Translations under genes and position numbers: made by a program
DNA from: Myxococcota bacterium
GTDB taxonomy: Bacteria > Myxococcota_A > UBA9042
Reading direction: 5' to 3'
Assembly (NCBI GenBank): GCA_044347905.1
Contig: JBIKTV010000002.1
Location: forward strand, 1-48,104
DNA length: 48,104 nucleotides
Notes under the pieces: generated by a model
What the model saw: the letters and a program-made list of their open reading frames with translations, nothing else
Databases searched by the model: none
What the model was told of the DNA's origin: nothing
Shown: positions 22,433-44,219 of the stretch, in pieces
Layout: each line of letters opens with the position of its first letter
Position numbering within the stretch: position 1 is the stretch's first letter

Positions 22433-22981
22433 ATGAGCGACACGACGGAGACCCTCCTGCCGGCCAGCCCGGAACCCAGCACCCCGGCTTCTGAAGAGGC
22501 CGCGCGCAACGATGACCAAGAGGCCCTAGAAGCCCTGGCTTCCTTGCCGCCGCGTCAGTTTGCCCGCCTTTGTCGGCGCGTGCCGCTGCGCACCTTTATG
22601 GCTGAGCTAGAGAAACTCGACCGCGGGGTGTTTTTCCGCCACTTCAAGGGCTATCGCCCCTCAAAGATCGATGCGAGCCACCTGGAGAAGGTGCTGCGCA
22701 AAGAGATGTTTGAGAAGCGCAACGGCCTGCTCGCCCAGCTGGTGATCTACAACTGGGACGAAGCGGAGTACCGCCTCTACGGCGACCTGCAGAAGGAAGT
22801 CAAGAAGATCAATGAGGATGTTGAGGCGATCGAGCACATCGAAGACAGCCAGGGGGACGAGATCATCGCGGCCCTGCTGGCGGTGTACGACCTGCGCGAC
22901 ATTCACATTGCCTTTGTGATCAATGGCGTGCGCGTGTCGGCTGCCTATCTGGCCAGCAAGTTCGCCGACGTTCTGAAGTAG
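22433..22981 (+). CDS. Hypothetical cytoplasmic protein (acidic N-terminus, conserved-looking helical C-terminal domain)
   Basis: A clean 182-aa ORF (MSDTTETLLPASPEPSTPASEEAARNDDQEALEAL...FFRHFKGYRPSKIDASHLEKVLRKEMFEKRNGLLAQLVIYNWDEAEYRLYGDLQKEV...). I recognise no domain. Its stop is 6 nt from the stop of the convergent histidine kinase. Confidence 0.6.
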   Translation: MSDTTETLLPASPEPSTPASEEAARNDDQEALEALASLPPRQFARLCRRVPLRTFMAELEKLDRGVFFRHFKGYRPSKIDASHLEKVLRKEMFEKRNGLLAQLVIYNWDEAEYRLYGDLQKEVKKINEDVEAIEHIEDSQGDEIIAALLAVYDLRDIHIAFVINGVRVSAAYLASKFADVLK

Positions 22982-22987: not shown

Positions 22988-24112
22988 TCAGGGCTGCGGC
23001 TCGCTGGGCGCCTCGGGCAGAACCACAGAGAAGGTCGAGCCTTTGGCGACTTGGCTCGTGAGCTCCAGGCGTCCGGCCATCCGCTCCACCAGCGAACGCA
23101 CGATCGACAGGCCCAGGCCCGCGCCGCCCACTTGGCGGGCCCGGCCCTTGTCAACCCGATAGAACCGCTCAAAAACACGCGTCTGTTCCTCTGGACGAAT
23201 GCCGATCCCGGAATCCGTCACGGAAATCCGCACTCCTGCGCGCGGCTGACCTGGCTCGCGCTGCACGCGGATCTCAATGCGCCCGCCGGCCGGCGTGTAC
23301 TTGATGGCGTTTTGCAGCAGGTTGCCAAGGGCCGTGTCCAAGGCGGCGCGGTCGGCGATCACCCGCAGCCGCGCGGTGCCGGACTGGGCCACGCGCACGG
23401 ACAGACCGCTGCGGTGGATGGCTTCAGCCTGATTCTCCAAGAGGGTTTTCAGCACTTCGGCCACGTCCACTGGCTCCGGGTGCAGCTGCCACTGCTGCTG
23501 GTCGAGCCGGCACAGGTCCAGGAGCTGCCCCAGCAGGGTGGAGAGGCGCTGGGCATGGCGGTGGATAGTCTTGTGGATTTGCTCGAGTTTTCTGGGGTCG
23601 GCCGGTGGAGCGTCGACGAGCGTCTCTGCCCAGCCCAGAATCGCCGTCGTGGGCGTGCGCAGCTCGTGGCTGGCATTGGCGATGAAATCCATCAACATCC
23701 GCTCTGTGTCGCGGCGTTCGGTGACGTCGCGCACCACCCCAAGGGCGCGATGACCCCAGTAGTCGTGGTCGGGCAGCGGCACCACGCGGATCTCAAGCAA
23801 GCGCGTCTGCAGACCGCGGTGCTCCACATCCAGGCTGCGCGGACCCTCCCCGCGGAGGACCTCCGCAAATGCTTCTATGAGTCGCGGCTCACTAATCATG
23901 GCGGACAGGGACTTGCCCTGGCTCAAGGGCGGCAGAAGCAGCGTGTCGCGCAAGCTGCGGTTGGTCACCACCAGGCGCATCTTCTCATCGACGACCATCA
24001 CGCCATCGCCCAGGGCATCGAGCATGGTCCAAAACAGGTTGGCGCGCTGATCGGGAGGGGGACCCTTGCGGAACTCGTTGGTATTCTCTGGGAAATCGGG
24101 CTGATCCTGCAT
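22988..24112 (-). CDS. Cytoplasmic PAS-domain sensor histidine kinase (PhoR-like HisKA/HATPase_c)
   Basis: There is no TM helix. A PAS domain is present (LFWTMLDALGDGVMVVDEKMRLVVTNRSL). The kinase boxes are visible: H-box ASHELRTPTTAILGW, N-box LGNLLQNAIKYTP, G1 VTDSGIGI and G2 GGAGLGLSIV. Confidence 0.92.
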   Translation of the reverse strand: MQDQPDFPENTNEFRKGPPPDQRANLFWTMLDALGDGVMVVDEKMRLVVTNRSLRDTLLLPPLSQGKSLSAMISEPRLIEAFAEVLRGEGPRSLDVEHRGLQTRLLEIRVVPLPDHDYWGHRALGVVRDVTERRDTERMLMDFIANASHELRTPTTAILGWAETLVDAPPADPRKLEQIHKTIHRHAQRLSTLLGQLLDLCRLDQQQWQLHPEPVDVAEVLKTLLENQAEAIHRSGLSVRVAQSGTARLRVIADRAALDTALGNLLQNAIKYTPAGGRIEIRVQREPGQPRAGVRISVTDSGIGIRPEEQTRVFERFYRVDKGRARQVGGAGLGLSIVRSLVERMAGRLELTSQVAKGSTFSVVLPEAPSEPQP

Positions 24113-24121
24113 GGCGAGCCT

Positions 24122-24823
24122 CTACTGCGGGGCATCGGGGGCGCGCAGGCAATAGCCAAATCCGCGCACGGTGTGAATCGCCTCGCCCGCTTGGCCCAGG
24201 CGCTCGCGCAGGCGCTTGACGTGGGTGTCGACCGTGCGGGTCTGCAGGTCCGGGCTCATCCCCCACACGTCCTCCAACAGGGTCTGGCGCGACTGCACTT
24301 CGCCCTGGCGCTGCAGCAGGGTGCGCAACAGCTTGAATTCCAAGGCAGTTAGGTGGAGCTCTTCCTGGCCGACCAGCACGCGGTGCTGCTGATCGTCCAT
24401 GAAGATCTCGCCACAGCGCATCCCGGACTCGGCGACAGGCACGGCAGGAGCGGCGGGGCTTCGCCGCAGGATCGCCTTGACCCGCAACATCAATTCGCGA
24501 ATCGAGAACGGCTTGGCCAGGTAGTCATCGGCGCCGGCCTCCAGGCCCTGGACGCGGTCGCTCTCTGCGGTGCGCGCGGTCAGCATCATCACCGGCGTCG
24601 CCGCCAGCTGGGGATCGGCGCGGAGGCGCTCGCAGACCTCGATGCCGGACATATCGGGCAGCATCAGGTCCAGAATCACCAGCGCCGGCTGATGGCGCTT
24701 GGCCAGGGCCAGGGCCTCCGCGCCCGTGCCGCAACTGACAAACGCGTAGCCGTGGGCATCGGCGGTGTGCTCGACGAGCTCGCGCAGGTCCGGCTCATCT
24801 TCTACAATCAGCAGCATGATCAT
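24122..24823 (-). CDS. OmpR/PhoB-family response regulator
   Basis: The receiver domain is present (MLLIVEDEPDLREL...LVILDLMLPDMSG...MLTAR...YLAKPFS). The winged-helix output is present (LTALEFKLLRTLL...TVDTHVKRLRERLG...IHTVRGFGYCL). The start ATG overlaps the upstream gene's stop (ATGA at 24820-24823). The kinase start is 9 nt downstream. Confidence 0.93.
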   Translation of the reverse strand: MIMLLIVEDEPDLRELVEHTADAHGYAFVSCGTGAEALALAKRHQPALVILDLMLPDMSGIEVCERLRADPQLAATPVMMLTARTAESDRVQGLEAGADDYLAKPFSIRELMLRVKAILRRSPAAPAVPVAESGMRCGEIFMDDQQHRVLVGQEELHLTALEFKLLRTLLQRQGEVQSRQTLLEDVWGMSPDLQTRTVDTHVKRLRERLGQAGEAIHTVRGFGYCLRAPDAPQ

Positions 24824-25500
24824 GGAGGTGCTCCGGCTTTGGGGGAGTGGGCAGAGGCGGTGCCGCTGGGGGTGGCGGCCGCGGGCAGGTCCAATTGCGT
24901 CGGCACCACCAGCAAGGCGGCGGCGCTGCGTCGGCCCAGCTGCACCTGGACCAGCAGCGCCAACAGGTCGCCTTGGCCATTTTCAAAGGCGGTCAGGTCG
25001 ATGGCCGTGGCCACCGCACGGAGCGGCCAGCGCCACAGCGGCTGATAGCCACCGCTGGCCTTGACCAGCACGGCGGCGAGGCGATCGCGGCTCAGGGCGG
25101 CCCACAGTTGGCCGTTGGAGCTGCGCACCAGCACGTCGAGCGGGCTCACGCGCTCGCGCGGCGCTTGAGGCACCGAATGGATTCGCCGGGACACCAGGCC
25201 TTCTGTCACGCTTTCATCGATGCGCAAGCGATCGAGCTCGCGGCCGCTGTCATCCAGCCGGGCCACCAGACAGGGCTGACCGGGGACATTGCTGCTGGCC
25301 TGGGAACCGGAGCGCCAGGCCATTCGCCGGCCGTCCGCGGACCAGCCGAGAAAGCGCACCCAAGCGCCGCTGTCGATCAGCTGGCCTGCGCGCGGACCTG
25401 AATCTTTGGCGGGCGGCGCGGCTGCGAGGCCGGCAGACCACAAACAGGCGACCCCAAGGACGGCACGCATCAGCCAGCTGCGCCTTGACGGGTGGATCAT
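24820..25500 (-). CDS. Hypothetical secreted/periplasmic protein
   Basis: Track ORF 24820..25527. I prefer the ATG at 25500, which gives a signal peptide (MIHPSRRSWLMRAVLGVACLWSAGLAAAPPA). The remainder (WVRFLGWSADGRRMAWRSG...) looks beta-rich and I recognise no domain. Translation is coupled to the response regulator. Confidence 0.6.
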   Translation of the reverse strand: MIHPSRRSWLMRAVLGVACLWSAGLAAAPPAKDSGPRAGQLIDSGAWVRFLGWSADGRRMAWRSGSQASSNVPGQPCLVARLDDSGRELDRLRIDESVTEGLVSRRIHSVPQAPRERVSPLDVLVRSSNGQLWAALSRDRLAAVLVKASGGYQPLWRWPLRAVATAIDLTAFENGQGDLLALLVQVQLGRRSAAALLVVPTQLDLPAAATPSGTASAHSPKAGAPP

Positions 25501-25513
25501 CGGGCGCAGTCGC

Positions 25514-26890
25514 TCATGGGGCTGCACCGCCGGCCATTTCCTGAAGCATCTGGCGCAACTTGGCCATTACCGGGCCCGGATTGCCACCGGCCGTCAGGCG
25601 CGCGTCAAAGCTGCCCTCGCCGCTCGTGTCATTGGTGTGGACCCGCGTCACTTCGCAATGCAGAGCCAGGACATCTTTGGGCCCGCCCTTGCCGGCGAGG
25701 TAGACCACCACGCGCTCATAGGTCGCGGGCAGGACCTGGGTCGAGACGCGCAACTTGCTCTCACTCAGCCGCAGCAAATTGCCGTCATATTTGCGCTTCT
25801 TGGGGCCAGCCTCAAACTGCACCTTCATGTCGACGCGCTGAGCCTGGTCGCCGGCGTAAAGCTCAGCGGCGCTCATGATCTTGTCCGACGAAGCCATCCG
25901 CGCGGGTGCTGCTACGGACGCCGCTCCAGGGGCAGAAGGAATGCCAGGAGTGCTCGCGGAACCCTTGCCAATGCCGCCGAGGATCCGCTGCATGACGCTG
26001 CTGCTGGCAGTGCGCCGGTTGACATCGACCACGGGGGCGGCGACCTGGCTGCTTGGGTCGACGATGTGGACTAGAATTTGCTCATTGACGTCGTGTTCAG
26101 TGTCCCGCGTCGTGGGGGTAGCTATGGGCGCGGCGGCGGGGCGTTGGCGCATCGGCTCTGGCGCGGCGGCCTGGCTGGCGACCGTCGCCATGACCCGGGT
26201 GGCGTCGGCATCGGCGGTGTGCGGAGCGGTGGCTGGACGCGGCGCCTGAGAGCCCAGGGAATTCATAGCCTCCAGCAGGGCGCTGCTCAGGTCTGGATCC
26301 CCCGTGCCCATGGCGGGCGCGGAACTGGCGGGGGCGGCTGAACTTTGTGGCGCGCTGGCTGCTTGGGGGACCGCTGCGCGCTCAGCGCCCGAACGGCCAA
26401 ACTGCGGGGCGGCTACAGCCGCAGGGGCGGACACCCCTTGGGGCGGATCGGCTTGGCGCGCAGTCGGCCTCTCTGCGGCGGCGGGGGCTGCATCCGGCAG
26501 GGAGTAGACAAAGCGCTTGAGATCCGGATTGTCGCGGTTGCGGCCCACGGACACACTGCCGCCCAGATCGATGCCGTGCTTCTCAATGAATTCTCTCAGC
26601 ACGGCGGCGCTGGCGGTGGTGCCTACGCGCTGCAGGCTCACCTCGACTTGCTGTTCGCCCCAGTCGCTGTCGACCACCGAGGCACAGCGGCCGTCCAGCG
26701 CCATGGCCTGGGCCGGATCATCATTCTCAATGCGCAGATAGACCTGGGTGCCCACCTCAGGCGCCCGCAGCGCGGTGAGCTGAGCCACCCGACCGCCCAG
26801 GCTGACGAGCGTGCCGATGGATCGGGTAGACTCCCACTCCAATGTGACGGTGGTATCAAGCAATTCAAGGAGATTGGCGTCGTCGGTCAT
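25514..26890 (-). CDS. Hypothetical protein with N- and C-terminal PilZ-like beta-barrel domains joined by an Ala/Pro/Ser-rich linker
   Basis: The N-terminal segment is TVTLEWESTRSIGTLVSLGGRVAQLTALRAPEVGTQVYLRIEND...DGRCASV. The C-terminal segment is VDMKVQFEAGPKKRKYDGNLLRLSESKLRVSTQVLPATYERVVVYL...LHCEVTRV. Both resemble PilZ domains, but the RxxxR and D/NxSxxG c-di-GMP motifs are only partly kept. A low-complexity spacer of about 230 aa separates them. Confidence 0.55.
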   Translation of the reverse strand: MTDDANLLELLDTTVTLEWESTRSIGTLVSLGGRVAQLTALRAPEVGTQVYLRIENDDPAQAMALDGRCASVVDSDWGEQQVEVSLQRVGTTASAAVLREFIEKHGIDLGGSVSVGRNRDNPDLKRFVYSLPDAAPAAAERPTARQADPPQGVSAPAAVAAPQFGRSGAERAAVPQAASAPQSSAAPASSAPAMGTGDPDLSSALLEAMNSLGSQAPRPATAPHTADADATRVMATVASQAAAPEPMRQRPAAAPIATPTTRDTEHDVNEQILVHIVDPSSQVAAPVVDVNRRTASSSVMQRILGGIGKGSASTPGIPSAPGAASVAAPARMASSDKIMSAAELYAGDQAQRVDMKVQFEAGPKKRKYDGNLLRLSESKLRVSTQVLPATYERVVVYLAGKGGPKDVLALHCEVTRVHTNDTSGEGSFDARLTAGGNPGPVMAKLRQMLQEMAGGAAP

Positions 26891-27072
26891 GGACCCTCTG
26901 CCAGGGGGACACCTTCCCCGCGCGGCGGCGATTCGCTGCTAGTTCACCGAACCCAAACGTTGCACAGGTCCGCTGCTGAGCCAAGGTCTGACGGTATTCA
27001 GGCCACCCAGCCGCACCACCCCAAGATAGCCCGTACACCCGCACGCCCAATGCCAGTTTTGGCGGTTGGGCA

Positions 27073-27858
27073 TCAATACTCGCAATAGCCGACCGAGCTG
27101 GAGAGCTTGGAGCAAGCCGTCGTGACATCATCGCAGCCGGTAGGGGCGGTCAAGCTGCAGATCTTTCGGCAATAGCCTTTGGCCCCGCCCGCCGCGCCTG
27201 CGCAGTGCAGTCCGGGCAAGCAGTCGGTGTTTTGGGTGCAGACTTCGCCCGCAGGCGTCGAGCCGGCCGTGGCGCAGCCAAAGCCACCGGATACCAGGTA
27301 ACATCCCTGTTTAGCTTCGCATTTGGGCGAGAGCGGGCTGCAGGGCTCGTACTTGGCCATGTCGCAGACGCTGTAAATTTTGTCGACGATCTTGTTGCAG
27401 CCGCCGCTGTCGCAGTGGGCCACGGACGTGCAGTAGGGCGCGCAGGCCGACTTGCCGTTCTGCGACGTCACGCACATGCCGATCTTGCAGCCCTTTCCGT
27501 CCGCGCAGTCTTCGCCGACGGCGTGTTCACCGTTGGCAACACAGGCGATTTTGTCGCTTTCGTCGTAGCCGCAGTGGGTGTCGGCGGGGCAATTCCAGTC
27601 GACCGGCAGGTCCCACGGCTTGCACGGCGGCTTGACGATGTCGGCCTTGGCGTCGCTGGTCTTGGCATCGCTCGCGCTGCTGTCCGCGGTGGCCGTGTCG
27701 GACGCTGAAGCCGTGTCGCCGGGAATGGTGGTGGTGGTGGCGGTGTTCTCTGCAGCGTCTTCGCAGGCCGAGAGAAAAACGCTGCCGGCCAGCGCGAGGC
27801 CCAAGGGCAGGGCGGCGGCGAATAATATCTTTAGGTTCAGGGCTTTGTGCCGCAGCAT
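27073..27858 (-). CDS. Cysteine-rich lipoprotein
   Basis: Track ORF 27073..27984. I prefer the ATG at 27858, which gives a lipobox (MLRHKALNLKILFAAALPLGLALAGSVFLSAC|ED). A Thr/Ser/Asp/Ala-rich linker follows. After it comes a Cys-dense domain of about 190 aa (CKPWDLPVDWNCPADTHCGYDESDKIACV...GEDCADGKGCKIGMCV...CAPYCTSVAHCDSGGC...GEVCTQNTDCLPGLHCAG...GYCRKIC...GYCEY). Confidence 0.75.
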   Translation of the reverse strand: MLRHKALNLKILFAAALPLGLALAGSVFLSACEDAAENTATTTTIPGDTASASDTATADSSASDAKTSDAKADIVKPPCKPWDLPVDWNCPADTHCGYDESDKIACVANGEHAVGEDCADGKGCKIGMCVTSQNGKSACAPYCTSVAHCDSGGCNKIVDKIYSVCDMAKYEPCSPLSPKCEAKQGCYLVSGGFGCATAGSTPAGEVCTQNTDCLPGLHCAGAAGGAKGYCRKICSLTAPTGCDDVTTACSKLSSSVGYCEY

Positions 27859-27901
27859 CTGAGACCTTCGTGGCGCGTCGCAGGCGCAAGCGCGGATTGT
27901 G

Positions 27902-29281
27902 TCAGAAGCTGCCGCCGAACGCGAGTCCCGCGTGCCAGACCTGCCCGCCGTGCTCCAAGTCGCCCACCGGGTCGTTGCGATCAACCTTGAGCGCCACGCG
28001 ATGGCTCTGCAAGTGCCACTGAAAGCCCGCGTCGATGTGGAGAGGCCCCGGCGTGTCGCGGTCGTCGATGTCCGCCTGGGCCAGCTGGCGGCTCAGACGC
28101 TCGGCAAAGCTGCCAAAACGCCAGCTCAAACCCGCGCCCAGCACATGGGTGTCGGAGTCGAGGTAGTTGAACGGCCCGCTGGCCCGGGGGGCAGGAGTCG
28201 GTCGGTAGCGGTAGCCGCCGCGCAGCAGCCACGCTGGACTCGCCCGCCACTCAGCAGCCAGCGCTGGACTCCAAGTATTGCGCAGGCCCAAGCGAATTTG
28301 CGGCGTGTCGGTGCCGATGTCGAGGATGTTCTGCAGGCCAAAACCTGTCACCGCCGGTCCCGCGGCGTCCAAGGAGACATAAGGCGACGGATCCGGTGCC
28401 GCTGACCAGCGCGCCCAGCCCAAATCCGCCATCAGCTGAAGACGACCGCTGGCACTGCGCCACGCCGCGCCGGCCTGAACCGTGTCCGGCGAAAACAGCG
28501 TATTGTGGCCCAAATTGATGAAAAGCTGGGCAGGGTCGCCTAGTTGGACATCCGTTGGGATCGCGTATTCCAGGGACAATTGCTGGCGGTAGCTGAGGCC
28601 AAACCACAGCTGCGGATGGGGATGCCACGCCCCGCCGGCGGTCAGGCGCGCGCGCGGCTCCAGGCCAATGCGAATCGTTGCGCGGTCATAGTCGTGATTG
28701 GTGGGCTGGACGCGCAGATCGATGGCGGCGTTCAGCACGGCCAGCACTTGCGCGCCCGCGCCGAGCCACAGGCCGTCGGCCACCTGCAAAGCGGCGCCAA
28801 ACAGGAAGGCCAGGCGATCGGGCATCCCTTCATACTGAAAGAAGTTTGGCGTTTGCGGGTCGGGGCCGGAGATGCGGATGAGGTGACCCACGGGCAAGGC
28901 CAGACCCGCGCCCAGGGCCAGGCGCCGCTTCAGAATGCCGCCGACGGGATAGTTCCAACCTAGCTCAAAGGCTGAGGAATCCGCGGGCTTGGCCGGCTGA
29001 CGGGTCGACGAACCGCCGGGAAACTGCTGGGCACAGCTCACCGGGGCGCCTTTGCAGTAGGGCCTCGTCATGCCCACTTGGAGATCCACGCGGGTCAACG
29101 ACATGCCAAACCAAGCACCGCCCAGAGGGGATGCCAGCAACATCGCGGGGTTGTGGAAAGCGGCTTCCCCACCCCGGGCACTCGCGGTCAGCGCGCCGAC
29201 CAGGCCGTTGGCCCGAGGACCGCCGCCAAACAGCTCAAAAACGCTCGCCTCGGCTGGAGCGGTCCAGCACAGCGAGAGCAA
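27902..29281 (-). CDS. FadL/TodX-family outer-membrane channel for hydrophobic compounds (start codon uncertain, possibly up to 29308)
   Basis: The N-terminal hatch-like motif SVFELFGGGPRANGLVGALTASARGGEAAFHNPAML is typical of the OMPP1/FadL/TodX family. The C-terminus ends in an aromatic residue (AGLAFGGSF). Amphipathic strands run throughout the sequence. The track start (TTG at 29281) cuts off the signal peptide; see the findings. Confidence 0.8.
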   Translation of the reverse strand: MLSLCWTAPAEASVFELFGGGPRANGLVGALTASARGGEAAFHNPAMLLASPLGGAWFGMSLTRVDLQVGMTRPYCKGAPVSCAQQFPGGSSTRQPAKPADSSAFELGWNYPVGGILKRRLALGAGLALPVGHLIRISGPDPQTPNFFQYEGMPDRLAFLFGAALQVADGLWLGAGAQVLAVLNAAIDLRVQPTNHDYDRATIRIGLEPRARLTAGGAWHPHPQLWFGLSYRQQLSLEYAIPTDVQLGDPAQLFINLGHNTLFSPDTVQAGAAWRSASGRLQLMADLGWARWSAAPDPSPYVSLDAAGPAVTGFGLQNILDIGTDTPQIRLGLRNTWSPALAAEWRASPAWLLRGGYRYRPTPAPRASGPFNYLDSDTHVLGAGLSWRFGSFAERLSRQLAQADIDDRDTPGPLHIDAGFQWHLQSHRVALKVDRNDPVGDLEHGGQVWHAGLAFGGSF

Positions 29282-29304
29282 CGCGGCGTAGAGGGCGAGG
29301 CGCT

Positions 29305-30399
29305 TCAGAAGGCCCCCTTCTTGCAGGGCTGCGAGACGAGATCGCCGACCAAGGCCAGGGCCCCCGGCAAGGCTTGGGAACGCAGCAATTCAATCAGTTC
29401 TGGCAGGGCTTCAATGGCTACGTCAGGCCGCAGGACGAGGCCCAACAGCTGATTCCACGCGTCGCGGGCCGCGGGCTTTGTCGCCAAAACGTCGGTGGCA
29501 TAGGCAATTACGGGGAGCCAGAGCTGACTGTCCACGTCGATCTTTGCGAAGGCCAGGGGATCCAGCGCCACCAGCACGTCATAGCCGTGGCCCGCAATCA
29601 GCTGATCCGGGTCGTGGTGCAGCAGGCAGACGGCAAATTGCTGAAGGGCGATGCGGGCCTGTTCCTTGTCAGCTGCTGCATCGCCCAGCACCGCGACACT
29701 CAGGAGGGCGTGCAGGGCGTCGACCAGGCCGGGCTGTTCGGGGGTGCGCAGCTGCCCCACGGTCTGCAGCAAGGGCGCGGCGTCAAAGCCATCTTGGGCT
29801 AGGGAAGTCGCGAGGTTGCGGATGATGATCTGAAAGCTCTTGCGCCCTTCCACCCCTGGGGCCTGGAGTGCGGCCAGGAGCTGTTGGCCACCGGCGGGGC
29901 CCGCTTCGAGCAGACCGTCCAGCGCCGTCGCGGCCTTTGGGTCGCGGAACAGCCGGGATCCCAGGACAAAGAGCTCTGAAGACAGGCAGTTCTGGGCCAC
30001 GGTTGAGAAAGCGGTCATCTCAGCGACGCGCGGCGGCAGCGGCGGCTGGGCGTTGGGATCTCCGGGCAGGGGTTCAAAGATCGCCACCACCAGGGGCACC
30101 AGCGCGCCCAGGCCCTGAGGCGAGATCAGATCCGGCAGGTGCTTGGAGGTATCGGGCGGCAGGGCGGCGGCGACATCCAGGACGAGCTGCACCACGGCGC
30201 GCTGGCTCGCGGGGCTCAGGCGGGTGGACAAGAGGCCGGCGAGGTGGGTGGTCTTGCCGGCCTTGGTCAATTCCATCAGCGGCCCAAGGCGTTGGTCGAT
30301 GGTCGCGCACTGGCCGCGCGGCGGCGCCTGGGGGGCAGAGTCATCCAATGCCCCGCAAGCGCAGAGGAAAATCGCCGCGGCTGCGAGAGTCGCTTTCAC
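29305..30399 (-). CDS. Hypothetical helical lipoprotein
   Basis: Track ORF 29305..30408 has a GTG start. An alternative GTG at 30399 forms a GTGA overlap with the upstream stop and gives MKATLAAAAIFLCAC|GALDD, a lipobox. The remainder is Leu/Ala-rich, predicted helical, and I recognise no domain. Confidence 0.65.
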   Translation of the reverse strand: MKATLAAAAIFLCACGALDDSAPQAPPRGQCATIDQRLGPLMELTKAGKTTHLAGLLSTRLSPASQRAVVQLVLDVAAALPPDTSKHLPDLISPQGLGALVPLVVAIFEPLPGDPNAQPPLPPRVAEMTAFSTVAQNCLSSELFVLGSRLFRDPKAATALDGLLEAGPAGGQQLLAALQAPGVEGRKSFQIIIRNLATSLAQDGFDAAPLLQTVGQLRTPEQPGLVDALHALLSVAVLGDAAADKEQARIALQQFAVCLLHHDPDQLIAGHGYDVLVALDPLAFAKIDVDSQLWLPVIAYATDVLATKPAARDAWNQLLGLVLRPDVAIEALPELIELLRSQALPGALALVGDLVSQPCKKGAF

Positions 30400-32387
30400 G
30401 GCACGCACGACGGCGCATCGGCGAGGCCTTGGGCCAAAGTCCAGGACAGAAGCTGCACGCCGCTGGGAGCCGGGTGGCGCTCCACCGCGTCGCGCACGGC
30501 CAAGATGGGCTCCAGGGCGGTGGCTGAGGCGCTCTGGGCCAGCACAAACAGCGCGGGCCGGTCGTCGACGCGCAGGCGATCGAGGAGGGGCTCCTGGCTA
30601 GGCAGGCGCTGCAACAGGGCCAAGTCAATGGCCTGTAGCGGCTGACCTGGCCCGCCGCGATAAGCCAAGGGCAGGCGCCCCTGTTCGGCGGTCATGTCGC
30701 CCCGCGGCAGGGCAAAGGCCAGCCAGGCGCCGCGCAACTCCGGGCCCACCAGTTCGCCAGTCAGCAAATCCTGGGCATCGGCCAATTCCTGGGCGCGGAG
30801 CTGGTGTTGGCGGGCCAGGGCGGTGTCCAGTTGGCCAAAAGCCCGGTGCGGCGGTTGCGGGATCGGTCCGGCGCTGAGGCCGGCAATGCTCTGGGTCCGC
30901 TGCAGCGCGCCGCCCAGGGAAGCCGCGGCAGCACTGACGGCGGCAGGCTCACTGGCGCTCAGCAGGACCCCTGCGGCCGCCGGTTGCTCTAGGAGCCATG
31001 CGAGCGCCGGGTCCTGATTGGCGGCGATGGCCACGGCCTGCCAAGGCCCCGCGCTGAGGATTTGCCGGGCGGCCGACAAGCTCTCCTCGATCTTGCCGCC
31101 CGACGCCGTCACCCACACGGTCCACGGCAAGCGCAGCGGGTCGGCGCCGTCGAGCTGCGCGGGCACGCCGTCCCAGCCGCGCACGGCTAGCGCGCCCACC
31201 AGATTGGGGACGTCGCGCACGGCGAGGAGGCGCTGGGCCAATTGCTCTGGCGTTTCAGGTGTTTGGCCAGGTCGAAGCTGGAGGACAAAACGCTGGGCTG
31301 CGTCGACGGTCTGGGGCAAGAGCTGCGAGCCCTCGCCAAAAGCGCCGCGCCATTGCGGATCGCGCCGCAGAGCGGCCTCTTGGCTCGACAGCAGGGCGCT
31401 ATCGCCCGCACTGCCGGCGTCCGCCAACACCAGCAGCGCCGGATTGCGCCCCACCAGCGCCGCCTGCGGAGCGATCGACACGCCGCGGCGCAAGGCGAAC
31501 AGTCGCGACAGGGGCACATCCTCTAGGGCTTGATCGCCGGGGCTGTGCTCGCGAGCCGCGCGGGCCTTGTCGAGCGAGGCGTGCAGCCACGCGGCGCTCT
31601 CCGCACTGTCACTGAGAGGCGGACCAGCTTGGGGATTTGCCAAGGCGCCGAGGGCACTCTGGAGGGCTGTGGCCAGGGAAACGCGGTTGTCCGCCAGGGT
31701 GCGGGTCAGCACCTCCAGGGTAAAGGTCGGCGTGACGGCGCCTGCGACGTGGAGTCGACTCGCCCCGGGCAACGCTGTGGCCAGCCGAGCCAGAGACTGC
31801 ACCGATGCAGTGGCCATCTGAAGGTCGCTCTGCGCGCCGGTGACCACCCAGGCGACCCGTGCCCGCGCGCCTTTGGCGATCGCCGCCGAGATCGGCGCGG
31901 CGAAGTCCTTTGGGGCGTGGGCCTGCCAGCTCGCAGCGACTGCGGCGGCGCTGTTGGCCAGCTCGGCGCTCCGCATGCGCACGACCAAGCGCAATTCCCC
32001 AGGCGCGGCGCGGCTAATGACCTGGTCTACCCCCGCAAGCTGCCGCAGAGCCCGCACGCTGTCGCGGCTGGCGGCATCGACTTGGCTCGGGTCGAGCAGC
32101 GGCGCAGGCACGCGCATTAGCACGTCAACCGTCTGAATTCCTGGCAGTTTGTCTGGTGCGCGGCCATACCTCAACGGCGCGGCTACAGCTGCGGCGGGAG
32201 GGGGCTGCGGCGGTTGCAGTGCGGTGGGCTGTGCTTGGCCGCTCCCCTGGCCTTGGGCCGTTGCGGGCGCCGGGGCGCTCTGGGTGGCCCCGGTCGTGGG
32301 CGACTTGCCGCACCCCGGACCGGCGCCAAGGGCAAGCGCCGACCCCAAGCCCAGCGCCGCGACCGCGCGAAGGGTCCTAAAACCCAT
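30396..32387 (-). CDS. Large lipoprotein resembling the periplasmic porter/docking portion of an RND transporter but lacking transmembrane helices
   Basis: Track ORF 30396..32435. I prefer the ATG at 32387, which gives a lipobox (MGFRTLRAVAALGLGSALALGAGPGC|GKS). After a Pro/Gln-rich linker, the segment LPGIQTVDVLMRVPAP...SVRALRQLAGVDQVISRAAPGELRLVVRMRS...ALPGASRLHVAGAVTPTFTLEVLTRTLADNRVSLATALQSALGALANPQAG follows the AcrB-type pattern. That pattern runs LP...V.V...v...l..l.GV..v.S...G...l.v...s...lPGv..v...G....+v.ld...l...gls...v..al...n...paG. A second half of similar style follows. I see no hydrophobic TM block anywhere after the signal peptide. Confidence 0.6.
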   Translation of the reverse strand: MGFRTLRAVAALGLGSALALGAGPGCGKSPTTGATQSAPAPATAQGQGSGQAQPTALQPPQPPPAAAVAAPLRYGRAPDKLPGIQTVDVLMRVPAPLLDPSQVDAASRDSVRALRQLAGVDQVISRAAPGELRLVVRMRSAELANSAAAVAASWQAHAPKDFAAPISAAIAKGARARVAWVVTGAQSDLQMATASVQSLARLATALPGASRLHVAGAVTPTFTLEVLTRTLADNRVSLATALQSALGALANPQAGPPLSDSAESAAWLHASLDKARAAREHSPGDQALEDVPLSRLFALRRGVSIAPQAALVGRNPALLVLADAGSAGDSALLSSQEAALRRDPQWRGAFGEGSQLLPQTVDAAQRFVLQLRPGQTPETPEQLAQRLLAVRDVPNLVGALAVRGWDGVPAQLDGADPLRLPWTVWVTASGGKIEESLSAARQILSAGPWQAVAIAANQDPALAWLLEQPAAAGVLLSASEPAAVSAAAASLGGALQRTQSIAGLSAGPIPQPPHRAFGQLDTALARQHQLRAQELADAQDLLTGELVGPELRGAWLAFALPRGDMTAEQGRLPLAYRGGPGQPLQAIDLALLQRLPSQEPLLDRLRVDDRPALFVLAQSASATALEPILAVRDAVERHPAPSGVQLLSWTLAQGLADAPSCVP

Positions 32388-32588
32388 GCAAAGCCTGGCG
32401 ATTTTGCGGCAGTTCTGCCACGGAGGTGTCGACACGTCTGAACCCCTGTCCGGCGCTGCCTCCGGATGCGAGCGAAGCTTTCAAGCATAGCGGGGTCGTC
32501 GGAAAAGCCAATGGCCGGCGCAGCACCCGCCAGGGCGATCGCAAGAAGCACGGATCTGGGGTTACAGGACGACCGCGCGGTCCAATTG

Positions 32589-32667
32589 GCCCCCTTCGTC
32601 ACCCTCGCGAAGGCGGGGGCCCAGGCTAAAACCAAACCATTCGCCTGGGTTCCCGCCTTCGCGGGAA
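32589..32667. repeat. Pair of inverted REP-like GC-rich hairpins (BIME-like) in the intergenic gap between the two minus-strand operons
   Basis: Hairpin 1 (32589-32620): GCCCCCTTCG ... CGAAGGCGGGGGC, an imperfect stem of about 10 bp with a 2-nt bulge. Hairpin 2 (32650-32667): TTCCCGC cttc GCGGGAA, a perfect 7-bp stem with a 4-nt loop. The cores CTCGCGAAGGCGGGGG and CCCGCCTTCGCGGGAA are near reverse complements of each other. Translated on the minus strand they give the familiar REP artefact peptides VIPAKAGTQ and APAFARVT, seen in track ORF 32183..32713. Confidence 0.7.
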
Positions 32668-32746
32668 TGACGGTGTGGGCGGTCCAGCGGTTCTTGCGAT
32701 AGCCCCGCAGCACCGGCGAAGGGCGATACCTCCGCGGGCGGCAGGC

Positions 32747-35431
32747 CTATTTCAGCGCATACAGCGCCGCCGCCCGCACGCAGCCCTGGCGGCCATTGGC
32801 CAGGCGCACTTCGACGCGGCCGTCGGCCAGCTCGCGCAGCCGCCGGACCTCAAGCCCCTCTGGCAGGCCAATGGGCTCGCCCACGCCGGTACAAGCGGAG
32901 AGGGGTTCGTCTTCTTCAACCACCACGGCTTTGACCACGGTCGCATCGGTGTAGAACGCCACCCCCAGCCACGCGGCGCACAGCACATGGGCGCTCAGCG
33001 CTGAGACGGCCCAAACCCCAACCAGCGTCCGCCGCCGCGACCTTGAACGGTGCCACCACAGCCCCAAGGCCACAAACCCCGCCAGGGAGCCGGCCAAAAT
33101 CAGCAGGGGCCGCGGCGCGGATCGGGCCAAGGCCTCCGCCAGCGCCGGTGTCTCGTCAAAAACGTGCAGCGTGTCGTGGCGGCGCCGGGCTTGTTCGCCC
33201 AGGAGCGACTGGACTTCGCCGAGGTTGGCTTCGATGTCCAGGCGCAGGGCGCTGTCCGGCTCGCGGCTCAGAGCTTGGCGGTAGTGGCCCACCGCAGCGC
33301 CTTTGCGTCCCAGAAGAAATAGCGCATTGCCAAGGTTGTAATGCACGGCCGGCGCGGTGACCTTGTGCTCCAACAGCTCCTGGTAAAGCTTGGCCGCCTT
33401 GGGCATTTCGCCCGCTAGGTAGGCGCGGTTGGCTTCGGCAAAGGTCTGATCCAGGGTCGCCGCCTGGGCGGCCATCGGCAGCAGCGCCGCAGCGGCGGTT
33501 GCCAGAAGCGCCATTGCCAGCGACGTCAGCGCCGGCGCAGCGCGCAGCAACAGCGGATCCAGGCGCTCCACCAGCACGGCGATGCGCTGTGCCGTCGCCA
33601 TCAGCTCCGCCTCGCGATTGTCCGCCGGGGCATAGCGGGCGTACTCGCAGTGGCTCAGTTCGTCCACGACGGCCTGGCGCAGATCGGCCGCAACCCCCGC
33701 CCTGTCGATCAGCCCAATGGCTTCTCGCTCTGAGAGCGGCGCGGGCGGCATCCCCGCCGTTTGGGCCAGGTAATCCAAGAGGATCCGCCGCATCTCCACG
33801 TATGCCGCGCCGGTGTCGGCGTGCTTTTGGGCGGCCAGGAGGGCGGCTTTGGCCTCTGCCGCGGCGCGCTTGCGGCGGAGCAAGGGGGCTTGGCGCGCCT
33901 GCCGGCTCCGCACCATGGCCGCCAGCGCCCACAGGAGCGCCGCAAGCGACGGACTGGCCAGCAGGCCCCAGACCCAGCGCTGGTTGTGCCACGCCTCCAC
34001 CGGGGTCGCTGCGAGGTCAGCCTGGGCCGCCAGGGGCCGCACCGGTCCGCGCTTTGCTGCCGGCACCGCCGCCGCACCGCCCGCAGCCGGGCCGGGCTTG
34101 GCCGAGGATTCCTTAGCCGCCGCCTCAGTTTTTTCCTGCCCAGGCGCTGCTGTCGCCCCCGGCAGGGCCGGCCCTTGCACCTCGATCTCAAACGGCCCGA
34201 CCTGCGAGGTCAGGTAGTTTTCTGTCGCGGGGTCAAAGTGGCTCCAAGCCAGCGCCGGCAAGGTGTAGGTGCCCGGTTGGGAAAAACTGAGCACATACTG
34301 CCAGGTGCGCTTGCCCGTCTGGCCGGCCAGGCCAAAGCGCACGCCGTCCCCTGGCCGCCCGGGCAGGGCTTCTACCGCCATGTTTGCGAGCGGCGGCGGC
34401 GCAATATCCCGGAGCCCCAGCAAGTTTCCGTCGCCGCTCAGCTCGTATTGCAGCAGCAGGCGCTCCCCGGTCATGACCTTGTGGCGCGTCGCAGCCTGGC
34501 CCGCCACCAGCAGCTGGCCGCTGACGGCAAAGCTGCCGACGTTGCCCGCAGAAAAACCCTGAGGCCGGCCCTTTTCTGGCAGCGGTCGCACCTTGAGCGC
34601 CACCGCCGGCCCTGTGGCTTTGCCCGACTTGCTCTCAAAGAAATCGCCGATCTCCACCTTAAAACTGGGTGAATCGATGCGCATTTCGCCCACCCTGGCC
34701 GGCGTCAGCAGCACCCGCTGCGTCACTTGGCGCATGTAGGGCCGGCCGCCGATCTGCACCGCTTCAGCCTTGGACTCGCCTTTTTGCAGGTCCTGGACAT
34801 CCGCATCGCCGTAGTGAGGTGGCGTCAAGCCGCGGATGCCCTGGATCGACACCTGGCGCGACCAGTACAGCTCAAAGGTCACCACGACGGCTTGCCCGGC
34901 ATACGGCTCCACCACAGAGAGCGACGGCCGCACAAAAAACGGCTTGCCCAGGTATTGGCTCAGCTCACTAGCTGCGATGGGCGACAGCGCTGCACCGCCG
35001 GCCTCCGCATCGCCGACCACCTCTACCTCTACAGCCCCCGATCGAGCGACCACGTTGGAATTGCTTAGTAACTCCACCGGTCCCAGGGTGAACTTGCCCG
35101 GCTTGGCGGGGTTGCCGATAAACGTGTAGCTCTCAATGCGCTGCATGGCGCCGTTGATGATGCTGACCTGGGTCTGGGTGCCCGCCCGCGAGAAATCAAA
35201 GCCGGGACTCGACAATTCCGTCATCGCGTCAAAATCGCCGGTGGCGCTGATCACCACCCGCAGCTGCTCATCCACGTTGAGGCGGTTGGCGGACACCTGC
35301 AGCTGCACCTGCGCCTCCGCCCAAGCCGGACTGGTCGTCAGCAGGCTCAGCAGCGCCACCAGCCACAGCCACGCGCGAGGCTGCGGCGCAACCCTCCACA
35401 GATGCTGCGGTTGTCGATCCTGCGACGCCAT
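32747..35431 (-). CDS. batD: BatD-BatE fusion protein (BatD oxygen-tolerance domain, TM segments, TPR repeats, C-terminal SH3b-like domain)
   Basis: A signal peptide is present (WLWLVALLSLLTTSPAWA|EAQ). A BatD-like beta-rich region follows (VQLQVSANRLNVDEQLRVVISATGDFD...FVRPSLSVVEPYAGQAVVVTFELYW...FAVSGQLLVAG). TM helices come next, then a TPR region (ANRAYLAGEMPKAAKLYQELLEH...HYNLGNALFLLGRKGAAVGHYRQALSREPDS). Two more TM helices and an SH3-like C-terminus complete the protein (ATVVKAVVVEEDEPLSA...GLEVRRLRELADGRVEVRLANGRQGCVRAAALYALK). Confidence 0.8.
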   Translation of the reverse strand: MASQDRQPQHLWRVAPQPRAWLWLVALLSLLTTSPAWAEAQVQLQVSANRLNVDEQLRVVISATGDFDAMTELSSPGFDFSRAGTQTQVSIINGAMQRIESYTFIGNPAKPGKFTLGPVELLSNSNVVARSGAVEVEVVGDAEAGGAALSPIAASELSQYLGKPFFVRPSLSVVEPYAGQAVVVTFELYWSRQVSIQGIRGLTPPHYGDADVQDLQKGESKAEAVQIGGRPYMRQVTQRVLLTPARVGEMRIDSPSFKVEIGDFFESKSGKATGPAVALKVRPLPEKGRPQGFSAGNVGSFAVSGQLLVAGQAATRHKVMTGERLLLQYELSGDGNLLGLRDIAPPPLANMAVEALPGRPGDGVRFGLAGQTGKRTWQYVLSFSQPGTYTLPALAWSHFDPATENYLTSQVGPFEIEVQGPALPGATAAPGQEKTEAAAKESSAKPGPAAGGAAAVPAAKRGPVRPLAAQADLAATPVEAWHNQRWVWGLLASPSLAALLWALAAMVRSRQARQAPLLRRKRAAAEAKAALLAAQKHADTGAAYVEMRRILLDYLAQTAGMPPAPLSEREAIGLIDRAGVAADLRQAVVDELSHCEYARYAPADNREAELMATAQRIAVLVERLDPLLLRAAPALTSLAMALLATAAAALLPMAAQAATLDQTFAEANRAYLAGEMPKAAKLYQELLEHKVTAPAVHYNLGNALFLLGRKGAAVGHYRQALSREPDSALRLDIEANLGEVQSLLGEQARRRHDTLHVFDETPALAEALARSAPRPLLILAGSLAGFVALGLWWHRSRSRRRTLVGVWAVSALSAHVLCAAWLGVAFYTDATVVKAVVVEEDEPLSACTGVGEPIGLPEGLEVRRLRELADGRVEVRLANGRQGCVRAAALYALK

Positions 35432-35434
35432 GGC

Positions 35435-38400
35435 CTACCAGTCCTTGTCGGGGCGAGAATTCTTGAACGGCGAGCGGCGCATGGCCTCTTCCGCCTCCAG
35501 GTTGTGCGGGTTGTGGTCGTTGCGCTCCATCTGCCGGCGCTGGCGCTCCTGCTGGTCTTTTTGCTCTTGTTCCTTGGGATCCGCCGGATCTTTCTTCTCG
35601 TCCTGGGGATCCTTCTTGTTTTCGTCGTCCTTCTTGTCGTCCGGCTTCTGCTCGTCCTTCTTGTCTTCGTCCTGCTTGTCTTGCTTATCTTGCTGATTCT
35701 GCTGGTTCTTGTCGTTGCTGGGCGGAGGCTCATCGATGCGCAGCACGTAGAAGTTCTCTACCCCCGGGGCCGCCCGCACGCGCAGTTGCACCACCCGCTC
35801 CGCCTTGGACCCCGGCAGACTCAGGACCTGCAGCGCCGCACGGCCTTTGCGCGCCGCCGGGGAATCCTCTGTCTTGCTGCGGGCTTTGCCTTCTTCCGCC
35901 GTCGCTGTCTGGGCCTTGGCCAACTCTTTCACGCCAGATTCATCCAGGGCGTCGAGCTCCAGGCCACCGTGCTGGCGATCGTAGCGCGCGGAAATCTGCA
36001 GGCTCTGCCCGGCTTTCTGCGTCAGCTGCAGCCAGTCCTGGTCGCCCTTGCAGATGCGCAACAGCCTCTCGCCGCCCACTTCGACCGGCTTGGCCTCCTT
36101 GGCGCTGTCGTTGGGCTCCAGCTCGTCATTGCCTGCCGGGCAGGGCGGCAGAATCCGCAGGCGCAGCTGATACGGCAGGTCCAAGCGGGCCTGACCGCGG
36201 TCGATGCTGGGCTCTGGCGTACCTGGCGGCAGGGAAATGTGGGGAATCGGCTGGGGAATCGGCGGCTGACCCGCTTGGCCCTGTTGACCCGGCTGACCCG
36301 GCTGCCCTGGTTGACCCGGTTGACCAAATTGACCGGGTTGCGGCGCCATTCCGGGCATGGCGGCGGACGGCATCTGCGGCACCGGTGCGGGCGCGGGTCC
36401 CGGCGGCGGCTGGCCCTGACCTGCTGGCCCGGGCTGAGGCTGCGGTCCGTTGATCGGCAGACCTCCGGGCGCAGGCGAGGTAATCGCGGGCAAGTTGGGC
36501 ATGCCGCCGGGCGGAAAATCCGGAGCCGCGACGCCACCGCCGGTCACCCGCACCCGATAGCGCCCTGCCGGAGGAGCCAGCACGGCCACGGTGCGCACCA
36601 CACTGCCGCCGGCGCTGACCGCTCCGCCCACAGCCTGACCCCAGCTTTGACCTTTGTCGTCAAACACTTCTACGGTGAGCTGCCCGGCCAAGTCCGCGGC
36701 GTCCGGCAGTTCCTCGACCGACGCGCCCAGGTCCACAAACAGGCTCTCCCCGTCCTTGAGGTCCACGGCGTACCAGTCGTCATCCCCCGGGCAAAGCTGT
36801 AGTCCTTCTAAGGGCTTGCTCAGCATGTCGCTGGTCAAAGGGTTGGCCTGCAGCGCTTGGTCGTTGTCCTCAAACGGGTCATCGCGCTCGCTGCACGGCG
36901 GCAAAATCTCCAGCTGGAGGGTGTAATCCGCCTCGGTGTCGGCCGCCCCGGCCACGCGCACCAGCACATCGCCGCCTTCCTGTACCGCCAGCCGCGCCGC
37001 CAAGCCTTCTTTGCCCTGGGCGCCCTTGCTCAGGCGGGTGCCGTTGGCGTCCATGATCTCAAGGGAAATCTCGCTGCTCCCCAGATCGACCTTGGGCTGG
37101 AGCGCGGCCTTGAGCCCCTGGCCCGGCATCAGCGGCACGCGGAACCAATCGGCGTTGTTGGGGCACAAGCGCGCCTGCAGCGGCTGGCCAATCGGCAGCT
37201 GACGGGCCTGCGCCGGAGAGTCGTTGGGCTCCGCCGGGTCTTCAATGCGCTGGCACGCCGGCAACACCCGCACGTTCAGGTCGTAAGGTGTCTCCACCTC
37301 GGCGATATCGCGCACGTCAATCAGCACGGTTTGAGGCGCAGTGACACCAGCGAATTCAATCTGTTCGCTGAGCTTCACCTCCGCTCCGCTCTGGCCAATG
37401 GCCACCTTGCCGTCCGCGCTCAGCAGCGCCATGCCCAGCTGCGGCTTGCCCGGCGCGGCGGTGGAGTCCTCGCTCGGCGGCGTCGGGTCGGCCTTAGTGG
37501 TCAGCTTGGCGCGCAGGCGGTCGCCGGGCTGCAGGTCGAGCTTGAAAATATCGTGTTCTGCTGGGCACATGCGCAGGTCCACCGTGGTCTCGCGCTGGCC
37601 CTCCGGCATCGTCAGCGGCTTGGCCTGTTCGGCGGTGTCATTGGGCTCTTCTTTGCCGTCGCGCTTGCTGCAGGGCGGATAGGCGCCGAGCCGGGCGATC
37701 TCTAGATTGCGCCTTGTTTCCATGCGGTTGGGGTCAGCAAGCAGCGACTGTTCCAGGCTGGTGACCGCGAGCTTGTAGTGCGGCAGGGGATCCGCTTCAG
37801 CCGACGCCGGCGAGGCCGGACTGCCACCTGCAGGCAACTGTCCTGGCGGATTCTGACCTGGCGAATTCTGGGGCGATCCCTGGGGATTTTGCCCTGGGGC
37901 AGGGGGCGGCGCGGCGGGACCGTGGGGCTGAGCGCCCGCCTGGGCCCCGGGTTGGTCGGCCGCAGGCGGTGCCGATGCCTTGGTCCTTTCAAGCGCTTGA
38001 GCCCAATCGAGCTGCGCAGTCCCCAACGCGTAGTGGATATCGGCTTCGATTTGCGGGTCGCGCAATTGCAGGGCGCCCAGGGCCCGCGACAGCGCCGTCA
38101 CCGCCTCGCCGTGGTTGCCCATCCAGGCCATCGCCACGCCCATGTTGTACCAGATGAGCGCGTGCTCAGGTCGGCTGGCCTGGGCCTGCTTGAACGACTG
38201 CAGCGCCTCGCCGTACTGCTTTTGCTGCAACTGCTCGCGCCCCTTAGAGATATCCGGGTTTTCGCGCTCCAGCCAGGCCGCGTGCGCAGGGCTCACAAGC
38301 GCCCCACTCGCCGTCAAGAGCGCCAGCAGCAGGCCGACCGCCAAAGGCGCCTTGGCGCGCACCGGAGCCGCTGCGGGTTTCTTGCGCCGGCCAGCCAGCA

Positions 38401-43232: not shown

Positions 43233-44219
<987 letters not shown>

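Follow-up and report, generated by a model that had tools for sequence, protein, structure and literature searches.

Which of the genes in a long, closely packed minus-strand run on a Myxococcota contig belong together, and what might they build at the cell envelope? The run lies in a 48,104-nt stretch of contig JBIKTV010000002.1 (GenBank assembly GCA_044347905.1; the whole stretch is referred to here as the window), which has a G+C content of ~66%. An initial annotation had described eight of its genes, at 22988-32435, as an undescribed envelope system. Open reading frame (ORF) calls on the window confirmed eight minus-strand ORFs at these coordinates, encoding, from 5' to 3', lipoprotein A, lipoprotein B, a FadL-like outer-membrane barrel, a Cys-rich lipoprotein, a PilZ-like protein, a secreted protein, a response regulator and a histidine kinase. 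The claim of an undescribed system stands in part: a conserved module is present and no description of it was found in the literature searched, but the eight genes are not an evolutionary unit. The invariant core is A-B-FadL, an envelope module so far known from uncultured Myxococcota alone, in which A is a homologue of the periplasmic headpiece of RND pumps and not an RND transporter. We hold the architecture and homology of the module, as set out below, with high confidence. The mechanism that we favour, a relay of a hydrophobic molecule between the barrel and A, is put forward only tentatively and we regard it as doubtful, while the statement as a whole, architecture and relay taken jointly, is given somewhat less than an even chance of being right.

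Conservation of the A-B-FadL core

Gene neighbourhoods were recovered from about 12 lineages, all of which are represented by metagenome contigs or metagenome-assembled genomes (MAGs) of 63-69% G+C that belong to the Myxococcales where labelled. At every recovered locus, the genes for A, B and the FadL-like barrel occur in that order, with B always seated between the other two, and the B and FadL genes overlap by 4 nt in 9 of the 12 lineages. As gene order is kept where A is only 26-37% identical, the arrangement is far beyond chance. The gene-neighbourhood check proposed with the initial annotation thus bears out the triad at every locus, while the secreted protein and the two-component pair prove to be limited to certain lineages. 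At the word level, a search of 5.8 billion clusters found only six homologues of A; a full profile search, run against 1.84 billion representatives, extended the A family to 41 clusters, the longest member of which is 704 aa. B has 21 homologues only. A genome-contig scan with A identified one MAG and a metagenome scan with B identified three loci. The A- and B-family clusters that were inspected are tiny, with only MAG or metagenome sources among the sources listed, and cultured Myxococcus and other myxobacteria probably lack A.

The genes for the Cys-rich lipoprotein and then the PilZ-like protein follow the FadL gene in seven lineages (window/L001, L002, L011, L013, L014, L020 and L021). 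These include lineages with A at only 26-31% identity, and the PilZ-like gene is still found with the module where A identity is 26-28%. At the other end of the core, a six-gene Bat operon lies directly upstream of A in 8 of the 12 lineages, the deepest branches included; the boundaries drawn in the initial annotation had left this operon out. The stop codon of batD overlaps the A start by 4 nt in L020 and lies 7 nt before the A start in L021. The response regulator and histidine kinase genes are linked to the module only in the clade of the window (L001 and L002) and its sister lineage L011, and the secreted protein is encoded, outside the window, only in L001 and L002, being absent from L011, L020 and L021. 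In two lineages, a different gene overlaps or abuts the end of the PilZ-like gene: an esterase/peptidase_S9 gene in L020 (17189-18163) and a nitroreductase-like gene in L021 (16995-18692). Such genes may be enzymatic additions peculiar to each lineage, and may give a hint of the substrate.

The neighbour-joining trees of A and of B, which carry no bootstrap support, agree broadly with each other, and both the Bat-linked and the Cys/PilZ-bearing states are found on all of their deep branches. Because both states occur there, we take the ancestral order to be MoxR-DUF58-x-BatA-BatB-BatD-A-B-FadL-Cys-PilZ. Later, some lineages lost the Bat linkage or the Cys-rich and PilZ-like genes, and the two-component pair and the secreted protein were gained.

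These distributions bear on the proposal that 22988-32435 encodes one autonomous, self-regulated trafficking device, with the PilZ-like protein, the secreted protein, the PAS kinase and the response regulator as dedicated parts. All eight genes are indeed co-directional and close-packed in the window, L001 and L002; L011, with no upstream Bat operon, retains seven of them, and the PilZ-like gene is retained down to the low A identities given above. The secreted protein, however, is limited to one clade, other genes stand where the regulator and kinase would follow PilZ in L020 and L021, six lineages have A-B-FadL alone, and the array is split by a gap of 182 nt. The proposal also ignores the Bat operon, a neighbour that is conserved more widely. 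It is already largely refuted as a definition of the unit and we consider it improbable as a whole; the word "dedicated" is not supported for the kinase and regulator, which accompany the module only in the window's clade and L011. The secreted protein and two-component pair are instead later, lineage-specific additions, which probably regulate the array in this genome.

Lipoprotein A

Lipoprotein A (30396-32435, minus strand, with a GTG start codon at 32435) consists of a lipobox, a disordered Pro/Ala/Gln tether of ~45 residues and an RND periplasmic headpiece, and has no transmembrane (TM) helices. The initial annotation had called it RND-porter-like, which is correct and understated, as the whole TM-less headpiece is recovered by profile comparison, AlphaFold2 modelling and Foldseek. 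Specifically, a profile built from 36 A-family sequences matches CusA at E=7e-8 over two co-linear regions (residues 40-224 and 735-863) and also matches MtrD, MdtB and other RND pumps. The RND family model PF00873 is matched by 19 of the 36 members, with the window's own A falling below the score for E=1. The AlphaFold2 model of A (pLDDT 86.5, pTM 0.85) is disordered over its first 71 residues, which comprise the signal peptide and tether. When this model was searched with Foldseek, the top matches were the AcrBper structures 5en5 and 7b8r (E=1e-21, about 640 aligned columns), followed by CusA, AdeB, CmeB, AcrB and MtrD. An hhalign comparison of the A profile with the single AcrB sequence was insignificant (E=0.32), and the RND homology of A is accordingly taken from the CusA profile match and the structural match. 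The hhalign alignment does cover the expected region, starting from AcrB residue 33, just after TM1; this starting point suggests that the lipid anchor and tether replace TM1.

RND transporters are about 1050 aa in length, and A is 663-679 aa in length. No 19-residue window of A has a mean Kyte-Doolittle hydropathy above 1.6. Based on these results, A is homologous to the RND headpiece but is not itself an RND transporter: the porter and docking domains are kept and all 12 TM helices have been lost. We considered whether A might be a gene fragment or an assembly artefact, and rejected this explanation because 36 members, which come from independent assemblies, agree in length, in having a lipobox and in lacking TM helices. 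A family member, P0055, carries the NCBI name "efflux RND transporter permease subunit" (MCO4761649.1, 664 aa, L020 10001-11995). Such naming is likely a systematic mis-annotation, as family members of up to 704 aa would be too short to hold a 12-helix domain.

Of the 28 A-family members with a complete N-terminus, 27 have a lipobox, followed by basic residues at +2 or +3. From the lipidated Cys, the window's A reads C-G-K-S. This fits the Lys+3/Ser+4 inner-membrane retention rule of Pseudomonas aeruginosa and echoes the +2 Lys rule of Myxococcus xanthus, both as cited in PMC3222651. Because of these basic residues after the lipidated Cys, A is predicted to be anchored, probably, at the inner membrane.

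Lipoprotein B

Lipoprotein B (29305-30399, minus strand) is predicted to be an all-alpha protein of about 20 helices, with four invariant Cys residues and a lipobox. The lipobox Cys is aligned, as CG, in all 17 N-terminally complete sequences. As the initial annotation had stated for both B and the Cys-rich lipoprotein, no recognisable family was found: searches of Pfam and NCBIfam gave no match for either protein, the profiles of both had no meaningful match to PDB sequences, and a Foldseek search with the AlphaFold2 model of B (pLDDT 77) gave a best E of 0.39. We also asked whether B could be a remnant of the missing RND membrane domain. This was rejected for two reasons. First, Foldseek matches of B to polytopic transporters reach only E 0.39 or worse, with TM-scores of 0.1-0.15. 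Second, B has a lipobox, four invariant Cys residues, short helices and no convincing hydrophobic segments.

The FadL-like barrel

The third core gene (27902-29308, minus strand) encodes an outer-membrane barrel of the FadL/TodX family with an N-terminal hatch and an NPA motif. The assignment to FadL made in the initial annotation holds: PF03349 is matched with 43.1 bits against a cut-off of 29.7, over part of the Pfam model, and a profile of eight barrel orthologues matches the solved FadL homologue 3dwo at E=4.5e-9. Matches of the same profile to CymD, TodX and FadL are weak (E 0.005-0.24). Over residues 3-62 of TodX and CymD there is a weak alignment (E 0.005-0.07) with the N-terminal 60 residues of the barrel, and the motif FHNPA is invariant in the eight orthologues. 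The barrel is a divergent FadL/TodX subfamily, with identities of 27-66% within the module.

The start of this gene is of interest for its junction with B. A TTG start would place the first codon at 29281 and would give a truncated signal peptide, with no ATG, GTG or TTG upstream of it. By comparison, a CTG at 29308 yields the full signal peptide KRLALYAALLSLCWTAPAEA and overlaps the B stop codon. Barrel orthologues have ATG or GTG at or near the position of this CTG, and a GTG start in L001, 18 nt further upstream, corresponds to CTG in the window. The FadL-like gene is therefore predicted to start, probably, at CTG 29308. The overlap with B is thus plausible, although it depends on this non-canonical start.

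The Cys-rich lipoprotein and the PilZ-like protein

Behind its lipobox, the Cys-rich lipoprotein (27073-27858, minus strand) has an acidic tether of low complexity and a domain in which 24 Cys residues are invariant. The three lipoboxes noted in the initial annotation, those of A, B and this protein, are conserved in orthologues, and lipidation is predicted for all three.

The position of this gene after the barrel in seven lineages, together with its product's long acidic tether, brings up a possible protein-handling role for the module. FadL-fold barrels can carry proteins, as in the case of PorV. The barrel here would accordingly resemble PorV (type IX secretion) or Slam and would display the Cys-rich lipoprotein at the surface, with A and B as periplasmic chaperones. 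In opposition to this, the triad is found without a nearby Cys-rich gene in six lineages, and the barrel matches Toluene_X/FadL with a transporter-type hatch and NPA motif and has no PorV-type match. We consider a protein-handling role very improbable.

The PilZ-like protein (25514-26890, minus strand) is cytoplasmic; its N-terminal domain is strongly conserved and is joined by a disordered linker to a PilZ-like domain at the C-terminus. PF07238 is matched with 25.6 bits against a cut-off of 22.5, a score that is summed from two weak stretches, and three of six orthologues match. The PilZ-like profile found nothing meaningful among PDB sequences, and a homologue search with the isolated N-terminal domain recovered a single fragment. 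In four orthologues the C-terminal domain reads LLRL(S/G)ESKLRV with no RxxxR before it; both the RxxxR and the (D/N)xSxxG motifs for cyclic di-GMP are absent. The initial annotation was thus right to call the PilZ domain degenerate, and its description of the protein as a "c-di-GMP-type adaptor" is not supported.

The secreted protein and the two-component pair

The last three genes of the run are specific to a few lineages. The secreted protein (24820-25500, minus strand) has a signal peptide and no family, and is confined to the window's clade. The response regulator (24122-24823, minus strand) is of the OmpR/PhoB family, with Response_reg and Trans_reg_C domains; its best NCBIfam match is PhoB at 234.9 bits, below the cut-off of 296.2. 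The run ends with a soluble PhoR/PnpS-like histidine kinase (22988-24112, minus strand) with PAS_4, HisKA and HATPase_c domains and no TM helix. The kinase scores below the cut-offs of the NCBIfam equivalogs PnpS (298 bits vs 400) and PhoR (271 vs 334). Based on these scores, the kinase and regulator are generic members of the HisKA and OmpR families, not PhoR/PhoB equivalogs. Studies of Riemerella anatipestifer from one group reportedly deal with PhoP and with MoxR, and may offer a loose parallel to the PhoB/PhoR-like pair found here.

The kinase gene forms the 3' end of the array and is followed by convergent plus-strand genes. The first of these (22433-22981, plus strand) encodes a 182-aa protein with no Pfam match, and 6 nt separate its stop codon from that of the kinase. 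The same convergent gene follows the kinase in L001, L002 and L011 (70-100% identity) and may be grouped with the two-component pair as a putative member.

The upstream Bat operon

Upstream of A, six tightly packed genes on the same strand occupy 32747-44405, with junctions that are overlapping or short. The run begins with a MoxR-type AAA+ ATPase gene (43233-44405; PF07726 AAA_3, E=7.5e-66, and AAA_lid_2), followed by a gene for a DUF58 (VWA-like) protein (42234-43157; PF01882, E=3.4e-79) that is also found upstream in L001, L002, L020 and L021. The third gene (40600-42240) encodes a membrane protein of no family with a weak RDD match; it has ATGA overlaps at both ends and orthologues of 53-58% identity in L020 and L021. 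BatA (39482-40603; N-terminal BatA domain, PF07584, and VWA, PF13519) is 64-72% identical in L004, L008, L020 and L021. The 1334-aa BatB-like VWA-TPR protein (35435-39439; VWA_2, VWA and TPR matches) has full-length orthologues in the same four lineages. The last gene (32747-35431) encodes a BatD-TPR protein (PF13584 BatD, E=2.3e-22, and TPR). All six are on the minus strand, and together they are a canonical Bat operon: MoxR, DUF58, BatA, BatB and BatD/TPR. The segment 22988-32435 is therefore the distal half of an array of 14 co-directional genes that spans 21 kb, from 44405 to 22988. An anti-phage defence system of the MoxR-VWA type was considered as well and rejected, as PADLOC gave no match for ten array proteins.

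The spacer between batD and A holds an insertion of ~145 nt (32560-32704, minus strand) that is absent, by alignment, from L001, a close relative with 87-97% identity. The insertion contains a hairpin at 32597-32672 with a stem of roughly 30 bp (-61.1 kcal/mol, z=-4.55) and no U-tract. It has no second copy in the window and no counterpart in the loci retrieved. One possibility is a small mobile or REP-like element; another is a terminator by which, in this strain, A would be uncoupled from the Bat operon. The ~110 nt before the GTG of A (32436-32545) are almost identical in the window and L001, amid an adjacent spacer that diverges, and for this reason they are likely to form a putative promoter or leader. 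The sequence GCGCCGG(C/A)CA occurs twice in this segment, at a distance of about 70 nt.

The close linkage of A to the Bat operon raises the possibility that the module serves the Bat complex as its periplasmic and outer-membrane arm, with a structural or signalling role (for example in envelope stress or in redox or metal handling) in which the RND fold serves as a scaffold. The ancestral A-batD fusion, by a 4-nt overlap or a 7-nt gap, would be expected of such an arm, as would the many conserved disulfide cysteines of B and the Cys-rich protein and the lack of an energy-coupling domain in A; MoxR/VWA proteins are thought to be chaperone or assembly devices, and a periplasmic Bat complex has been proposed (PMC3557215). 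The triad nevertheless persists without an adjacent Bat operon in four lineages, and both recognisable parts, a barrel of FadL type that carries the hatch and NPA motif and a porter of RND type, belong to families whose known members move small hydrophobic or amphipathic molecules. A Bat arm also predicts little, as the role of Bat is itself elusive. On balance, we regard it as unlikely, and return to the relay of a hydrophobic molecule below.

Gene junctions and array layout

The initial annotation had described the eight genes as translationally coupled. Several of the junctions agree with this: A and B share a 4-nt GTGA overlap, the secreted protein and response regulator genes share a 4-nt ATGA overlap, and 9 nt separate the regulator from the kinase, 13 nt the PilZ-like gene from that of the secreted protein and 43 nt the FadL-like gene from that of the Cys-rich lipoprotein. 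Two junctions do not fit as simply. The 4-nt CTGA overlap between B and the FadL-like gene, the third such overlap among the eight genes, requires the start at CTG 29308, and a 182-nt gap between the Cys-rich and PilZ-like genes had not been listed. The latter divides the run into two tight blocks, A-B-FadL-Cys and PilZ-Sec-RR-HK (RR and HK being the response regulator and histidine kinase), so that a description as eight coupled genes goes too far; the same gap is only 42-58 nt in L002 and L011.

A consensus scan for internal promoters and terminators, of a kind that is ill-suited to this GC-rich lineage, found no promoter-like sites and one terminator-like site, the latter inside a coding region; this is fewer than in shuffled sequences. 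Rfam gave no match anywhere in the window, and no riboswitch or known RNA was found in the spacers.

Comparison with known systems

The module shares components with several characterized systems. With respect to tripartite RND pumps such as CusCBA and AcrAB-TolC, A corresponds to the whole headpiece of the RND subunit, and CusA is its best sequence match. A differs in having neither the 12-helix membrane domain nor the proton relay, with a lipid anchor and tether in the place of TM1, and the outer-membrane partner encoded beside it is a FadL barrel. No HlyD/membrane fusion protein (MFP) or outer-membrane efflux protein (OEP) is encoded among the 14 array genes or 13 scanned flanking ORFs; the gene calls of the related loci list none either. 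The module is not a tripartite RND pump. AcrBper, which is the best structural match of A and nearly equal to it in length, is a laboratory construct, whereas A belongs to a natural lipid-anchored family and is only 11-13% identical to AcrBper.

The barrel resembles the FadL, TodX and CymD channels in its Pfam score above the cut-off, its profile match to 3dwo and its N-terminal hatch with NPA, and differs from them in that the barrel of the module is always preceded by two dedicated lipoprotein genes. We know of no description of classical fadL loci with two such genes upstream. A related arrangement is found in M. xanthus, in which the lipoprotein gene MXAN_7039 is apparently co-transcribed with the downstream fadL gene MXAN_7040; these are reported among cell-envelope genes that affect developmental fate, and both products were detected in outer-membrane fractions (PMC3222651; bioRxiv 10.64898/2026.08.28.747804). 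The likeness is that of a lipoprotein gene followed by fadL.

The six upstream genes match the canonical composition of Bat/MoxR-DUF58-VWA operons. Unlike those operons, the operon here has genes for an RND-headpiece lipoprotein, a FadL barrel and a PilZ-like protein appended to it. PMC3557215, which treats Bat operons of Leptospira and cites those of Bacteroides and Francisella, reports none with any of these three and calls the function of Bat "elusive". In the open-access full-text literature searched, neither a TM-less RND headpiece of natural origin nor a pairing of RND with FadL was found described. Every identifiable part of the module derives from a known family.

Other features of the window

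Upstream of the MoxR gene lies a divergent ORF (44434-45342, plus strand) and, beyond it, a gene for an M14 carboxypeptidase (45343-47685). Elsewhere in the window, a 638-aa protein (7457-9373, minus strand) has four Dictyostelium-type Cys-rich repeats (PF00526, E=1e-21). A 1633-aa ORF (15671-20572, plus strand) has only a weak Met-zincin (DUF4953) match and a 1623-aa counterpart downstream in L001; an overlapping 1121-aa ORF on the opposite strand is probably an artefact of the GC-rich sequence.

Proposed mechanism

The initial annotation had suggested trans-envelope trafficking of a hydrophobic molecule, an idea that we retain as inference from the families involved. FadL barrels pass their substrates without an energy source, and RND porter domains bind substrates in periplasmic clefts. 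Since small hydrophobic or amphipathic molecules are what both families handle, we favour a relay between them. The FadL barrel would pass a hydrophobic small molecule across the outer membrane, and A, held by ~45 disordered residues and probably at the inner membrane, would take the molecule up in its porter pockets and relay or channel it across the periplasm toward the inner membrane. B, together with the Cys-rich lipoprotein where it is present, would act as an outer-membrane-side partner. As A lacks the proton-relay membrane domain, this step would not be driven by proton-motive force through A, and no energy-coupling component was identified in the A-to-PilZ part of the array; the flux may be downhill (uptake with metabolic trapping) or dependent on the co-encoded Bat/MoxR complex. 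AcrBper was engineered by joining the two periplasmic loops of AcrB and leaving out the membrane domain; the product folds, forms trimers and binds ligands (PMC8617272). As it does so without a membrane domain, a TM-less headpiece that binds ligands is physically plausible.

Several points weigh against this account of the module. With regard to A, the TM-score against RND headpieces is only about 0.5, with a root-mean-square deviation of 8-9 Å, so that the arrangement of subdomains may differ and the binding pocket is only putative. The residues that are invariant across the A family (Arg, Asp, Trp, Gly and Pro) match no known RND ligand sites, and the sorting rules that would place A at the inner membrane are those of P. 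aeruginosa and M. xanthus, which may not be the rules of this lineage. With regard to the partners, contact between A, B and the barrel is predicted from gene order alone, and classical FadL releases its substrate laterally into the outer membrane and needs no periplasmic partner. With regard to the wider locus, the Bat linkage is broken in four lineages and the Cys-rich and PilZ-like genes are absent in six, which have A-B-FadL only, so that neither is obligatory; the batD-A spacer in the window is 311 nt in length and carries a strong hairpin. Finally, no member of the A module is from a cultured organism.

The same components could serve an outward route, in which the headpiece would pick up a hydrophobic product at the inner membrane, be it a lipid, pigment or signal, and pass it on to the barrel to be inserted into the outer membrane or released from it, by analogy with RND lipid exporters of the HpnN or MmpL type. 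RND headpieces usually work outward, A is probably anchored at the inner membrane and passive FadL channels are bidirectional in principle, all of which would suit export. The cluster, however, lacks a membrane domain, a proton relay, a membrane-fusion protein and a TolC-like duct, and no biosynthetic genes are conserved beside the module, the neighbours of which vary by lineage. We consider export quite unlikely.

Significance

RND pumps are defined by a proton-driven membrane domain coupled to a periplasmic headpiece. A natural family that consists of the headpiece only would show the porter and docking module working, or reused, without its motor. It also means that the database label "RND transporter permease subunit" is misleading for proteins of the A family. 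To our knowledge, how hydrophobic molecules pass through the periplasm after FadL is not settled, and the module offers FadL-type channels a candidate periplasmic partner. The ancestral fusion of A to the Bat operon is, in turn, a concrete handle on the function of Bat and the most useful lead to come out of the analysis; we know of no answer to the question of what Bat/MoxR-VWA complexes do since it arose in 1999.

A more speculative extension, which we think rather unlikely, is that the Bat/MoxR-VWA complex forms the inner-membrane base of a trans-envelope conduit, having recruited a TM-less RND headpiece, a helical lipoprotein and a FadL-type barrel. If this is true, the work of a cytoplasmic AAA+ ATPase or of VWA assembly would replace the proton-motive RND motor, a new way to build an envelope-spanning machine for transport or signalling. 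It would also give Bat its first mechanistic role and establish a new class of RND-derived periplasmic proteins.

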